From a virus (lineage: Duplodnaviria > Heunggongvirae > Uroviricota > Caudoviricetes): a stretch of DNA of 9,500 bases. A program made the position numbers and the translations under genes. Below are positions 1 through 9,500 of this stretch, piece after piece (position 1 is the first letter of the stretch; each line of letters opens with the position of its first letter). Below the pieces are notes generated by a model. The model had not been told where the DNA came from. It saw only the letters and a program-made list of their open reading frames with translations, and did no database searches. Location: the IMG/VR virus record IMGVR_UViG_2648501498_000020. One strand, given 5' to 3'.

Positions 1-345
1 AGATGAAAAATTGAACCACACATTATATTGCTGATCACTATAATATGGCGGTGTCATGTCATGAACAGGACAAGGGTGCTTATCGAAATTGGTAGAAATA
101 CCGATTAAATTTGCAAAGTATATTTTCAACTGTCCACTATCAAAAAGGTATATTTCCAAAGGATTATTTTCAGATATTTGATCTTTTAAATCATTAAACT
201 CCCTTGGACATTGTTCATCAGCTTTTGCCCACCATCCCCACCAAACTGAGCCCTTAGATTTGATTATATCCTGATGTAGAGTGATTGTTTCTCCGGCGGG
301 TGTGACCAAATCCCTGAAACGAAGAATGATAGTTTTGCAATTCAT
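1..345 (-). CDS. hypothetical protein, AT-rich accessory gene (first 115 codons; continues beyond window start)
   Basis: Minus-strand ATG at 345-343 with AAGGAA Shine-Dalgarno 8 nt upstream; 115 codons to position 1 with no stop (MNCKTIILRFRDLVTPAGETITLHQDIIKSKGSVWWGWWAKADEQ...). Region is about 70% A+T, unlike the rest of the window. Not in the ORF track because it runs off the edge. Product not recognised. Confidence 0.6.
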   Translation of the reverse strand, partial: MNCKTIILRFRDLVTPAGETITLHQDIIKSKGSVWWGWWAKADEQCPREFNDLKDQISENNPLEIYLFDSGQLKIYFANLIGISTNFDKHPCPVHDMTPPYYSDQQYNVWFNFSS

Positions 346-3042: not shown

Positions 3043-3309
3043 ATGCAAGCTGTTTTTTCTTCCCCGTCTCCCGCCCCTGTGACGCCACTGATGCCGCTGC
3101 CGGACATCACGCAGGAGCGTTTTTTACGTCTGCCGGAAGTGATGCACCTGTGCGGCCTGTCACGCTCGACCATCTATGAACTCATCCGTAAGGGGGAATT
3201 TCCGCCGCAGGTGAGTCTTGGCGGTAAAAATGTGGCCTGGCTGCACTCTGAAGTCACTGCATGGATGGCCGGGCGCATTGCCGGACGCAAACGGGGGTAC
3301 GACGCATGA
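3043..3309 (+). CDS. vis: Vis, AlpA-family small DNA-binding regulator / excision directionality factor
   Basis: 88-aa ORF; GAGG SD 5-6 nt upstream of the ATG at 3043. [28 protein letters not shown] is a typical AlpA/Xis-type helix-turn-helix. Stop TGA 3307-3309 overlaps a downstream ATG (ATGA). Confidence 0.8.
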
Positions 3310-3905
3310 TGATGCCCGCTCTGCAAAAACTCCCTTTTTCTGGCTTGCCTTTTTCCGGCATTTGCGGATATAGTTTTTCCGCTGCCGCAAAATCGGCAGC
3401 CGGGCGTGAGAACCCGAGCAATCTAACGGCGACATATGACGCGCCATGCGTCTTTTTTTGTGTCGCAATCAACGCCACAGAGCGCCAGATTATGGTGTGG
3501 TGTGTGGTCAGTCGTGCAGATGGCATTCCGTGCATCCTGCCCGCGTCCGCTCATTATGCCGCAGAGTCAATGGTAGCTCAGGCGGGGCAGCCTCCGGGCT
3601 GGCCGGTATCCGTTAGAGCCGGTATTCTCACCCCCGTCTGGGCTATCGCCATCGAGCGTGAGAACTCCGGCGATAGCGTAACCTGCTATCTAACGGAGGC
3701 TGCCATCATGGCTACAACCCTTACCCCCTCACACCCTGAATTTGTCTTTGTGTTTGCGGCTGTCCGTCGCGCAGACCGTCATCCTCGTATCTGTATGCTT
3801 CGCACCGTCGCCGGTGATGAACGCAGCGCCCGCCGTTCCCTTGTCCGTGACTATGTGCTCTCCCTTGCTGCCCGTCTGCCGGTGGTGGAGGTGTCCCGTG
3901 CGTAA
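3306..3905 (+). CDS. long ORF (199 codons from ATGATGATG) spanning the immunity leader; possibly translated only on read-through from vis
   Basis: ORF track gives 3261..3905 (214 aa); the ATG at 3306 overlaps the vis stop (ATGA) and gives 199 codons. It runs across seqA, cI and seqC, and its start lies upstream of the PLE-like promoter, so PLE transcripts could not encode all of it. Coding status uncertain. Confidence 0.35.
3345..3374 (+). promoter_or_regulatory. candidate sigma70 promoter (PLE-like): TTGCCT -N18- TATAGT
   Basis: -35 TTGCCT (3345-3350) and -10 TATAGT (3369-3374), giving a predicted start near 3381, just upstream of seqA. Sequence inspection only. Confidence 0.4.
3406..3429 (+). 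promoter_or_regulatory. seqA: leader target complementary to cI RNA
   Basis: GTGAGAA...TCTAACGG; both blocks are exact reverse complements of the CCGTTAGA and TTCTCAC blocks at 3610-3631. Confidence 0.5.
3560..3650 (+). ncRNA. cI: cI immunity RNA region (approximate bounds) containing seqB
   Basis: seqB CCGTTAGAGCCGGTATTCTCAC (3610-3631) is complementary in two blocks to seqA (3406-3429) and seqC (3658-3696), with GC-rich hairpins around it (CAGCC-TCCG-GGCTG). Matches the P4 arrangement as I recall it. Ends not determinable from sequence. Confidence 0.5.
3658..3696 (+). promoter_or_regulatory. seqC: second target complementary to cI RNA, overlapping the kil ribosome-binding site
   Basis: GTGAGAA (3658-3664) ... 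TCTAACGG (3689-3696); the 3' block overlaps GGAGG (3695-3699), the SD of the ATG at 3708. Confidence 0.5.
3708..3905 (+). CDS. kil: Kil-like small protein (65 aa; in-frame internal start of the long ORF, eta possibly nested)
   Basis: ATG 3708 preceded by GGAGG (3695-3699) at 8-nt spacing; [65 protein letters not shown]. First start codon with a strong SD downstream of the cI region. kil/eta naming is from memory of the P4 literature. Confidence 0.5.
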
Positions 3906-5103: not shown

Positions 5104-5976
5104 ATGAAAATGAACGTAACCGCCACCGTCAGCCATGCACTCGGCCACTGGCCGCGTATTCTCCCGGCGCTGGGGATTCAGGTGCTGAAAAACCGTCATC
5201 AGCCCTGTCCGGTCTGTGGCGGGAGTGACCGCTTCCGTTTTGATGACAGGGAGGGGCGCGGCACCTGGTACTGCAATCAGTGTGGTGCCGGTGACGGCCT
5301 GAAACTGGTTGAAAAGGTGTTTGGTGTTTCCCCGTCCGACGCGGCCGCAAAGGTGGCTGCCGTGACCGGCAGCCTGCCCCCGGCTGACCCGGCAGTGACG
5401 GCCGCCGCCGGTGCTGAAACAGAAGCCGCCCGGAAGAACGCCGCCGCACTGGCACAAACCCTGATGGCGAAAACCCGTCCCGGAACCGGTAACGCCTACC
5501 TGACCCGCAAGGGCTTTCCCGGCCGGGAATGCCGGATGCTGACCGGCACACACAGAGCCGGTGGCGTGAGCTGGCGTGCCGGTGACCTTGTGGTGCCACT
5601 GTATGACGACAGCGGCGAACTGGTTAACCTTCAGTTAATCAGTGCTGACGGCCGTAAGCGCACCCTGAAAGGCGGACAGGTCAGGGGCACCTGTCACATC
5701 CTTGAAGGACAGAATCAGGCCGGAAAACGTCTGTGGATAGCGGAGGGATACGCGACCGCACTTACCGTGCATCACCTGACCGGTGAAACGGTGATGGTGG
5801 CGCTTTCTTCCGTGAACCTCCTTTCTCTGGCCAGCCTTGCCCGGCAGAAGCATCCGGCCTGTCAGATTGTCCTTGCCGCAGACCGTGACCTCAGCGGTGA
5901 CGGCCAGAAAAAAGCCGCCGCAGCCGCAGATGCGTGTGAAGGTGTTGTTGCCCTGCCGCCGGTCTTCGGTGACTGA
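5104..5976 (+). CDS. alpha: Alpha N-terminal fragment: zinc-binding + TOPRIM primase domain (ends at in-frame TGA)
   Basis: AGGAGA SD 8 nt upstream; CPVCGGSDRFRFDD...WYCNQCG zinc-binding motif and EGYATALT primase motif. Ends ...PVFGD then TGA at 5974-5976. Confidence 0.85.
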   Translation: MKMNVTATVSHALGHWPRILPALGIQVLKNRHQPCPVCGGSDRFRFDDREGRGTWYCNQCGAGDGLKLVEKVFGVSPSDAAAKVAAVTGSLPPADPAVTAAAGAETEAARKNAAALAQTLMAKTRPGTGNAYLTRKGFPGRECRMLTGTHRAGGVSWRAGDLVVPLYDDSGELVNLQLISADGRKRTLKGGQVRGTCHILEGQNQAGKRLWIAEGYATALTVHHLTGETVMVALSSVNLLSLASLARQKHPACQIVLAADRDLSGDGQKKAAAAADACEGVVALPPVFGD

Positions 5977-6066
5977 AATGATGCCTTCACGCAGTACGGC
6001 GGGGAAGCCACCCGTAAGGCCATTTACGATGCCATCCGGCCACCGGCTGAAAGCCCGTTCGATACC

Positions 6067-7437
6067 ATGAGCGAAGCGGAGTTTTCCGCCATGAGTACCA
6101 GCGAAAAGGCCATGCGTATCTATGAGCATTACGGCGAGGCGCTCGCGGTCGATGCCAACGGCCAGCTTCTGTCCCGCTATGAAAATGGTGTCTGGAAGGT
6201 GCTGCCGCCACAGGACTTTGCCCGGGATGTGGCCGGGCTGTTTCAGCGTCTGCGCGCGCCGTTCTCCTCCGGGAAGGTGGCCTCCGTGGTGGACACCCTG
6301 AAGCTGATTATTCCGCAGCAGGAAGCCCCCTCCCGCCGCCTGATTGGCTTTCGTAACGGCGTGCTCGACACGCAGAGCGGCACGTTCCACCCGCACAGTC
6401 CGTCACACTGGATGCGCACCCTGTGCGATGTGGATTTCACCCCACCGGTGGAAGGGGAAACGCTGGAAACCCACGCCCCCGCGTTCTGGCGCTGGCTTGA
6501 CCGTGCCGCCGGTGGCCGTGCGGAAAAACGCGACGTGATTCTGGCCGCACTGTTTATGGTGCTGGCAAACCGCTACGACTGGCAGCTCTTTCTGGAGGTG
6601 ACCGGTCCCGGCGGCAGCGGCAAAAGTATCATGGCCGAAATAGCCACCCTGCTGGCCGGGGAGGATAACGCCACGTCGGCCACCATCGAGACGCTGGAAT
6701 CCCCGCGTGAACGTGCCGCGTTAACTGGCTTCTCACTGATACGCCTGCCGGACCAGGAAAAATGGAGCGGCGACGGAGCCGGACTCAAGGCCATCACCGG
6801 CGGCGATGCGGTGTCCGTTGACCCGAAATACCGGGATGCGTACTCCACGCACATCCCGGCGGTGATTCTGGCCGTGAACAATAACCCGATGCGCTTCACC
6901 GACCGCAGCGGCGGCGTGTCACGCCGGCGGGTGATTATTCACTTCCCGGAACAGATAGCCCCGCAGGAGCGCGACCCGCAGCTTAAGGACAAAATCACCC
7001 GCGAGCTGGCGGTCATCGTGCGTCACCTGATGCAGAAATTCAGCGACCCGATGCTCGCCCGGTCACTGCTTCAGTCCCAGCAGAACTCAGACGAGGCGCT
7101 GAACATCAAACGGGATGCCGACCCGACGTTTGATTTTATCGGCTATCTGGAAACCCTGCCGCAGACCAGCGGCATGTATATGGGGAACGCCAGTATCATC
7201 CCGCGTAATTACCGTAAATACCTCTATCACGCCTATCTGGCCTACATGGAGGCAAACGGCTACCGGAATGTACTCAGTCTGAAAATGTTCGGGCTGGGGC
7301 TACCGGTGATGCTGAAGGAATACGGACTGAATTACGAGAAGCGCCATACCAAACAGGGGATACAGACCAACCTGACACTGAAAGAGGAAAGCTACGGCGA
7401 CTGGCTGCCAAAATGTGACGACCCTGCGACAACCTGA
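6067..7437 (+). CDS. alpha: Alpha C-terminal fragment: D5/SF3-type helicase (Walker A GPGGSGKS) plus C-terminal DNA-binding region
   Basis: Same reading frame as 5104..5976; 30 stop-free sense codons lie between the TGA and the ATG at 6067. Walker A GPGGSGKS, Walker-B-like VILAVNN. No convincing SD before 6067. Confidence 0.8.
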   Translation: MSEAEFSAMSTSEKAMRIYEHYGEALAVDANGQLLSRYENGVWKVLPPQDFARDVAGLFQRLRAPFSSGKVASVVDTLKLIIPQQEAPSRRLIGFRNGVLDTQSGTFHPHSPSHWMRTLCDVDFTPPVEGETLETHAPAFWRWLDRAAGGRAEKRDVILAALFMVLANRYDWQLFLEVTGPGGSGKSIMAEIATLLAGEDNATSATIETLESPRERAALTGFSLIRLPDQEKWSGDGAGLKAITGGDAVSVDPKYRDAYSTHIPAVILAVNNNPMRFTDRSGGVSRRRVIIHFPEQIAPQERDPQLKDKITRELAVIVRHLMQKFSDPMLARSLLQSQQNSDEALNIKRDADPTFDFIGYLETLPQTSGMYMGNASIIPRNYRKYLYHAYLAYMEANGYRNVLSLKMFGLGLPVMLKEYGLNYEKRHTKQGIQTNLTLKEESYGDWLPKCDDPATT

Positions 7438-7453
7438 CCATCATGACTCATCT

Positions 7454-7478
7454 GACCGGCATCTGCCGGTCTTTTTTT
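7454..7478 (+). terminator. intrinsic terminator downstream of alpha
   Basis: GACCGGC-ATCT-GCCGGTC hairpin followed by TTTTTTT, 17 nt after the alpha stop. Confidence 0.7.
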
Positions 7479-7493
7479 ATCCCGACATCCCCC

Positions 7494-7796
7494 GAAGGTG
7501 AACAATCTACTGTTCACCCTTCACCGTATATTCACCCGTTATCACACTGAAATTAAAAGAGAAAAACGAAAGGTGAACAGTGTGAACAATCAAATCAAAA
7601 AAAACTTTTTTCTCCCTGTGTGATTTTCAGTACGGGGGATTAATCACCGGTATGAGTCACACCAGCAGAATGCCGGAGGTGAAGAATCGAATGTTCACCC
7701 TTCACCCATTATTCACCACCTATCATACTGAAATAAAAGGAGAAAAAAGAAAGGTGAACAGTGTGAACAGTTCTTTCGAAAAAAAATTTTTTTCCT
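7494..7796. repeat. crr (cis replication region): two ~120-bp direct repeats about 181 bp apart, each with TGTTCACC / GGTGAACA iterons
   Basis: Repeat 1 about 7494-7615, repeat 2 about 7675-7796 (GAAGGTGAACAATCTACTGTTCACCCTTCACC... vs GGAGGTGAAGAATCGAATGTTCACCCTTCACC...; both end AAAGGTGAACAGTGTGAACA + A/T run). Matches my recollection of P4 crr as two 120-bp direct repeats separated by 60 bp. Confidence 0.75.
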
Positions 7797-7939
7797 GTAC
7801 GATATAGCATCAATCCAAGTAAAAATGCGCTTTAATTTCACATTAACTTACAGCCATTGGTATACAATTAGGTATACGCACAAAAACTGAATTAAACAAA
7901 ATCGTTAAAAATCAAAGCAATATAATATTTATTCAAACT

Positions 7940-7962
7940 CCGCCAGCCCACCAAAATTCTCC
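7940..7962 (+). other. possible att core: CCA-terminated motif resembling the 3' end of a tRNA/tmRNA
   Basis: ATTCAAACTCCGCCAGCCCACCA has a TTCAAA T-loop-like segment, an acceptor-like segment and a terminal CCA, about 210 bp upstream of the int start. No full tRNA can be folded: upstream sequence is AT-rich. Speculative. Confidence 0.25.
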
Positions 7963-7999: not shown

Positions 8000-8047
8000 A
8001 GCCCGCACGGCGCAAGCCCGCACGGCGCAAGCCCTGCGGGCTTTTTT
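8000..8047 (+). terminator. tandem 15-bp repeat (AGCCCGCACGGCGCA x2) forming a GC-rich hairpin followed by TTTTTT
   Basis: Two exact tandem copies at 8000-8014 and 8015-8029; stem GCCCGCA (8016-8022) / TGCGGGC (8035-8041) then T-run 8042-8047. On the plus strand, between the CCA motif and int. Confidence 0.45.
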
Positions 8048-8154: not shown

Positions 8155-8172
8155 AACTATGGAAACCCGGCA

Positions 8173-8229
8173 ATGGCAAGACAAACCAAACCTCTATCCG
8201 TTAAAGAAATCGAATCTGCTAAACCCAAG
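8173..8229 (+). pseudogene. int: tyrosine integrase (P4/CP4-57-like), N-terminal ~19 codons only, interrupted by IS insertion
   Basis: MARQTKPLSVKEIESAKPK resembles the conserved N-terminus of P4-family integrases. After codon 19 the frame reads [22 protein letters not shown], which belongs to the IS terminus. Junction placed at about 8229/8230 where the IS-like TGT begins; exact base uncertain. Confidence 0.6.

Positions 8230-9500
<1,271 letters not shown>

Follow-up and report, generated by a model that had tools for sequence, protein, structure and literature searches.

The 9,500-nt stretch of DNA analysed here (the window) holds a P4-like satellite of Escherichia coli in which the gene for the primase-helicase Alpha is interrupted by a single stop codon. 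The alpha region comprises the following features, given in window coordinates; L016 denotes a second satellite with the same stop, described below.

5104-7437, plus strand: alpha primase-helicase frame (P4 alpha), 777 codon positions, broken only by a TGA at codon 291
5104-5973, plus strand: 5' part of alpha, 290 residues, 30.3 kDa, with the zinc ribbon and most of TOPRIM; last residue D290
5974-5976, plus strand: premature TGA at codon 291, with A as the next base (5977); TGG (Trp291) in P4 and the other relatives except L016
5977-7434, plus strand: rest of the alpha frame, residues 292-777, open, with the end of TOPRIM, D5_N, the SF3 helicase and the winged-helix origin-binding domain
7435-7437, plus strand: natural alpha stop, TGA, from the translation
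7454-7481, plus strand: intrinsic terminator 3' of alpha (t-alpha in P4), as in P4

Translation of 5104-7440 in frame 1 contains a single internal stop, at codon 291 (…PPVFGD-stop-NDAFTQYGG…), which bears out the first-pass annotation of one in-frame TGA at 5974-5976. That annotation had counted 777 sense codons; the frame does have 777 positions, as many as are annotated for P4 alpha, but they are made up of 776 sense codons plus the internal TGA. A Pfam domain search, run on the frame with Trp restored at position 291, places Zn_Ribbon_Prim (PF08273) at residues 30-66 (1.9e-18) and Toprim_3 (PF13362) at residues 210-299 (1.1e-12), spanning codon 291; the EGYATA and DxD motifs are present in this primase part. 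Downstream of the TGA, D5_N (PF08706) covers residues 336-467, DUF5906 (PF19263) residues 500-608, with the Walker A motif GPGGSGKS at 501-508, and Pox_D5 (PF03288)/winged helix residues 670-768. Residues 671-770 match PDB 1KA8, the solved P4 origin-binding domain, at 100 of 100 positions. Pfam thus agrees with the predicted layout, zinc-binding and TOPRIM domains before the TGA and Walker A helicase and DNA-binding regions after it, with Toprim_3 crossing the TGA, which falls within a D-W-N-D motif 9 residues short of the end of that domain. The computed mass of the truncated 5' product, 30.3 kDa, is near the ~32 kDa that had been estimated. Primase, helicase and origin-binding domains are all found, and what the locus lacks is a single uninterrupted open reading frame (ORF) of ~777 codons; it is the P4 alpha gene, as a disrupted allele.

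Across all 2,334 bases, the gene is 98.3% identical to P4 alpha at the DNA level (X51522/NC_001609). The two share length, domain order and neighbours, with orf106 upstream and the terminator and the cis replication region (crr) downstream, but the P4 protein (NP_042036.1, 777 residues) has TGG at codon 291 where the window has TGA, and shows ten further amino acid differences, none of them private to the window allele. At 5976 a G has become an A, a transition that turns TGG (Trp291) into the stop TGA. The two nearest E. coli alpha alleles, 99.5% and 99.3% identical, both have TGG, as does P4. Searched with a 62-nt probe around the TGA, 1,005 of 5,426 complete E. coli genomes yielded 1,203 places, each with at least one mismatch and none with the TGA, and megablast with the 33-mer of the TGA allele (CGGTCTTCGGTGACTGAAATGATGCCTTCACGC), a 33-nt probe that can seed solely on this allele, did not find it in the same 5,426 genomes. 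A host other than E. coli as the cause of this absence is ruled out by the smpB-ssrA flank, which is 99.1% identical to complete E. coli genomes.

At the protein level, the best 120 homologues (85-99% identical; from E. coli, Salmonella, Klebsiella, Enterobacter and Citrobacter) all read FGDWND. All 119 full-length homologues have W291, and at no position but the stop does the TGA allele differ from every one of them. Among 27 distant relatives that cover the site (31-59% identity), D290 and D293 are invariant (27/27) and W291 is found in 24. We take D-W-N-D to be the third acidic, metal-binding cluster of TOPRIM primases; a TOPRIM-domain profile aligns DWND, weakly (E=0.027), with the 'DPDD' of the bacterial DnaG catalytic core (PDB 5GUJ). 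Neither an exact 44-mer of the TGA allele nor a degenerate codon-aware TGA pattern has a match in GTDB representatives, JGI metagenomes or IMG/VR. As a positive control, the degenerate pattern with TGR matches at least 120 IMG/VR contigs, all of which must have TGG because the TGA pattern matches none of them. The first-pass annotation had allowed that close relatives might all carry the same TGA, and had proposed P4 alpha for the comparison; in the alignment to P4 alpha and its relatives, codon 291 is instead TGG throughout, save in L016.

The stop is reproducible. Twenty-one contigs, which come from independent isolates, metagenomes and SRA assemblies (NCBI, ENA, Logan), encode exactly this 290-residue product; among them is JHSF01000101.1 of GCA_001265845.1, whose sequence is that of the window. 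Eight of these loci were compared: three from isolate assemblies (GCA_001265845.1, GCA_001266375.1 and GCA_002460965.1), three from ENA metagenome assemblies and two from Logan SRA assemblies. They are ~100% identical to the window across up to 9.2 kb; all their differences from it come to one single-nucleotide polymorphism, an indel of 1 nt in a homopolymer, a change of a 15-bp repeat unit, ten consecutive Ns and, in one metagenome scaffold (L011), three substitutions upstream of alpha (4475, 4478 and 4523). This near-identity points to one mutation in one lineage, now inherited, and the TGA allele would accordingly represent one recent, clonally inherited event. A sequencing or assembly error that hides a true TGG, listed as an option in the first-pass annotation, would account for a one-base difference from all complete genomes. 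It is refuted by the identical product on 21 contigs, drawn from three NCBI isolate, three ENA metagenome and separate Logan SRA assemblies; a further assembly, that of L016, also has this TGA, and the base at 5976 lies outside any homopolymer, which leaves an error with next to no probability.

L016 (GCA_041122525.1, contig JBBZZK010000004.1), which surfaced through a look-up of the 448-residue ORF discussed below, has its alpha gene at 9014-11347 and a TGA at 9884-9886, again codon 291; its N-terminal fragment is recorded on one contig only. It has another integrase (392 residues), other cargo, a short delta and another chromosomal site than the window's satellite, to which it is 98.0% identical, with 119 differences over 6 kb. 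Alpha alleles are mosaic: the window and L016 are identical from 5834 to 6026, around the TGA, in a haplotype that also occurs in intact alleles, L002 for example. In complete genomes, the TGG allele closest to that of L016 is only 99.4% identical to it.

The reading we favour, with a probability of about 0.85, is an ordinary recent pseudogenisation of alpha by one TGG to TGA change in one E. coli lineage. The inactivating mutation proposed among the options of the first-pass annotation is supported by the TGG of P4 and its relatives. What is established directly is the mutation, with its absence in relatives, its reproducibility, its clonal spread and its place within the TOPRIM motif, and that everything else in the satellite is intact; the course of events and their effect would be as follows. 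A single G-to-A transition would have arisen recently in alpha of an ssrA-integrated P4-like satellite, in one E. coli lineage. Most translation would then stop after residue 290 and yield a 30-kDa zinc-ribbon/TOPRIM fragment, deprived of the W-N-D half of the D-W-N-D motif and of the helix that follows, and severed from the helicase and origin-binding domains needed at ori and crr. Since Alpha must combine priming, unwinding and binding to ori and crr (PMC8628076; PMC2777425; PMC4234260), the satellite is most likely replication-defective or strongly impaired. It would persist as an integrated island, as integration, immunity and the defence-type cargo should need no Alpha. The nonsense allele is ordinary gene decay on this reading, and no new coding trick. 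The amber mutants of classical P4 genetics resemble it in that they, too, have a nonsense codon in alpha, with loss of replication expected in a non-suppressing host; they differ in being laboratory UAG alleles, whereas the window has a natural UGA, and UGA is intrinsically leakier than UAG.

Some observations sit less comfortably with a chance inactivation. The 486 codons downstream of the TGA are fully open and hold no private substitutions, which fits a very recent event without proving loss of function. L016, a distinct P4-like satellite, shares the TGA, which a one-off random mutation would not predict; just 208 one-step nonsense substitutions are possible in alpha, 54 of them transitions, and the prior for an independent hit on the same base is about 0.5-2%. 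Recurrence could explain the L016 allele, but because of this low prior, short-patch recombination between satellites is more economical; an older shared allele could explain it as well. L016 leaves the verdict unchanged, as two occurrences, both shallow, fall short of conservation; it does give a small probability to an allele that is tolerated or favoured.

Decay of alpha is common, through lesions of independent origin. Complete chromosomes hold alleles frameshifted after residue 300 or 390 (P0133, P0122), and 2 of 30 full-length IMG/VR copies of alpha are frameshifted. Deletion remnants near the pao locus have a reverse-transcriptase cargo fused beside the last 448 alpha codons (L014, L017, L018 and L020). 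In a survey of P4-like satellites, some variants have no alpha at all, and pseudogenes are reported among the core genes (de Sousa and Rocha, 2021; PMC8628076). As in those cases, a small lesion here inactivates a core gene of an otherwise complete element; the published examples are mainly alpA frameshift pseudogenes, whereas the window has a nonsense codon in alpha, in one clonal lineage and one other satellite. The degraded P4-like satellites at the pao locus (L014, L015, L017, L018 and L020) consist of an integrase, the reverse-transcriptase cargo and only 1.4-1.8 kb of the 3' part of alpha, and from these remnants gene callers output the same 448-residue ORF as from the window.

Two further features, both downstream of the TGA, bear on whether the broken frame could still be put to use.

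6078-6093, plus strand: putative internal start, with GGAG at 6078-6081, a 9-nt spacer and ATG 6091 (Met330); the same bases in intact alleles
5978-6070, plus strand: out-of-frame ORF of 30/31 codons, from ATG 5978 or 5981, 2-5 nt past the TGA

The frame might work as two polypeptides, with residues 1-290 as the primase and Met330-777 or Met322-777 as a separately initiated helicase/origin-binding fragment, or through the C-terminal fragment alone together with host DnaG. The first-pass annotation had raised two polypeptides and remarked that ATG 6067 has no Shine-Dalgarno sequence. This is confirmed (-0.1 kcal/mol), but the next in-frame ATG, 6091, had been missed, and it has GGAG at 9-nt spacing, with -6.1 kcal/mol as against -7.2 to -11.1 kcal/mol for genuine starts in the window. 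The ORF that begins there (6091-7437; 448 residues, 50.2 kDa) is annotated by gene callers, and a ~50-kDa fragment with D5_N, helicase and winged-helix domains is conceivable. The out-of-frame ORF ends at the TGA 6068-6070, which overlaps ATG 6067 as ATGA and so connects the premature stop to that codon; the overlap might offer a chance route for termination-reinitiation into the alpha frame. The break also lies near a natural module boundary, as relatives exist with the helicase or the primase part joined to other domains. Ziegelin and colleagues reportedly described, in 1995, trans complementation between primase-null and helicase-null Alpha mutants, with a requirement for the primase only where active DnaG is missing; if this is right, the Met330 fragment might support some replication. 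The rest of the evidence runs the other way. The N-terminal fragment ends in D-W-N-D, before Toprim_3 is complete (residue 299), and, because it is cut there, primase activity is improbable; with the TGA inside Toprim_3, the break does not part two complete domains. The Shine-Dalgarno sequence, the ATG and the out-of-frame ORF are ordinary coding sequence in intact alleles as well, so they did not evolve for a split, and a search for an internal promoter found none. Among relatives, only the two TGA alleles, one near-clonal set and the singleton L016, are broken here. The Shine-Dalgarno sequence of ATG 6091 keeps the two-polypeptide option conceivable, but the split is not conserved and its N-terminal half is without part of the TOPRIM motif; as a functional arrangement it is quite unlikely. 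It is physically plausible that initiation at Met330 and read-through of the UGA occur as minor by-products.

Read-through is at the centre of the other alternative, in which Trp-tRNA(CCA) reads the UGA-A and a few ribosomes make wild-type Alpha, in an amount that is enough for replication or that was selected to throttle it. Because the lost codon was Trp, read-through would rebuild authentic Alpha, the exact wild-type protein, and the presence of the same TGA in a second satellite, L016, can be counted in its favour. UGA read-through in E. coli reflects competition between Trp-tRNA and release factor 2 (RF2) and, in a K-12 reporter, ranges from ~2% at 37°C to ~4% at 25°C (PMC10570021), and RF2 binding is comparatively weak at UGAA (PMC5373646); to this extent the leaky context invoked in the first-pass annotation holds. 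Signals of recoding do not accompany it. The RNA at 5965-6064 folds no more stably than shuffled sequences (z=+0.66), Rfam gave no match in alpha at gathering thresholds, and the stop is not conserved, every full-length homologue having TGG in its place, with L016 as the only exception. Selenocysteine insertion or programmed read-through is ruled out by this lack of conservation, of structure and of an Rfam match. Qβ A1 protein is another case of UGA read-through. Natural UGA read-through sites of E. coli, such as nudL and pheL, are likewise UGA followed by A, with Trp-tRNA as the near-cognate decoder; their stops are conserved, whereas that of the window is not, stands where relatives keep a Trp codon and comes with no signal of its own. 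Natural E. coli isolates carry the more active RF2 type, and since read-through products vanish with that RF2, the leak in the window's host is probably well below 1%. In K-12 supplied with the more active E. coli B variant of RF2, UGA read-through products, including that of the pheL UGAA, were undetectable (PMC5373646). A leaky allele that sustains or regulates replication is thus unlikely. Very unlikely, too, is a selected 'dimmer', in which read-through of UGA, the only stop that Trp-tRNA misreads, would yield about a hundredth of the normal Alpha, possibly together with the Met330 helicase fragment, and the allele would have moved between satellites by recombination. Were it true, the satellite would be quiescent and cheap for its host, yet rescuable, and the identical TGA in the window lineage and in L016, at different chromosomal sites, would be explained.

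The rest of the satellite is in good order. Its other features, with those of the adjoining island, are listed below in window coordinates, except for the integrase, which lies outside the window and is given in coordinates of L004; L004 and L005 are longer contigs of the window's lineage.

L004 1566-2759: the satellite's own integrase, 397 residues, intact; intact also in L005
2660-2763: ori, with six exact TGTTCACC type-1 repeats, arranged as in P4
7492-7792: crr, with two 120-bp direct repeats (converted from L004 coordinates) and five exact TGTTCACC Alpha-binding octamers, 7497-7760
8171-8229: start of the second island's integrase, from ATG 8171, ~20 codons, then cut by IS100
8230-9500: the insertion sequence IS100 (IS100kyp), which interrupts the second island's integrase

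In the longer contigs, the satellite is integrated at the 3' end of ssrA, and the order is ssrA, integrase, a two-gene cargo, psu, delta, sid, ori, alpA, the CI-RNA region, ash/epsilon, orf151, orf106, alpha and crr. All core satellite genes have P4 lengths, so that the context is P4-like throughout. In the whole window, the TGTTCACC octamer occurs 11 times, where 0.45 would be expected. At ~7935-7958, a degenerate copy of the end of ssrA (attR) closes the satellite, and beyond it a second ssrA-type island starts in tandem, which carries espC in a complete genome of the same layout. The first-pass annotation had combined the broken alpha with an integrase disrupted by an insertion sequence and a TAG in istB into the picture of a decaying element. 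A disrupted satellite integrase is rejected: IS100 sits in the integrase of the next island, past attR, and the satellite's own is intact (L004). The TAG in istB is real (codon 36, CAG to TAG, 8971-8973, minus strand), but it lies in the insertion sequence, outside the satellite; the same 71-nt istB allele is found in 15 complete-genome records, including plasmids of enterotoxigenic E. coli (ETEC) O169:H41, and the TAG is a property of a circulating IS100 variant, unrelated to alpha. A 220-residue istB ORF restarts at Met40. With the disrupted integrase assigned to the adjacent island, damage to the satellite is limited to alpha; the other genes, ori and crr are intact, and decay of the element as a whole was an overstatement.

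Several observations concern the neighbourhood of these features. Rfam identifies the P4 immunity RNA at 3368-3653, with c4-a1b1 at 3368-3420, isrK at 3381-3458 and the C4 antisense RNA at 3566-3653, and this region overlaps an ORF called as an Icd-like/Phage_ASH protein (3306-3905). The cargo lies between the integrase gene and psu, the P4 defence hotspot (window 1-345 plus L004:2787-5242), and both of its genes have PADLOC hits. The first encodes a 279-residue HAD-type hydrolase (PADLOC 'Hydrolase', 4.7e-64); the second, of which the window has the 3' end only, encodes a 537-residue Pua-like metallophosphatase with weak PDC-S60 and effector-endonuclease hits. Upstream of the satellite, ssrA (L004:1019-1381) specifies the transfer-messenger RNA (tmRNA) tag peptide ANDESFALAA (ARAGORN). 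The usual E. coli tag is ANDENYALAA, from which that of this lineage would then differ by N to S and Y to F. Directly past attR, the 15-bp unit AGCCCGCACGGCGCA stands twice in tandem (8000-8029); one metagenome copy (L006) has it once.

For annotation, the locus should count as a single pseudogene, a disrupted alpha, within a P4-like satellite that is complete in other respects, and not as two genes, although gene callers currently give a 290-residue and a 448-residue protein at alpha; beyond annotation, the importance of the finding is little. The allele nevertheless provides a natural test case, in that only Trp-to-UGA nonsense alleles regain the wild-type protein by read-through, and it could be used to gauge the leakiness of UGA in wild E. 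coli with their native RF2. The same TGA in L016 illustrates short-patch recombination, or recurrence, among co-circulating satellites. In the window's lineage, the satellite is probably a non-replicating, domesticated defence island.

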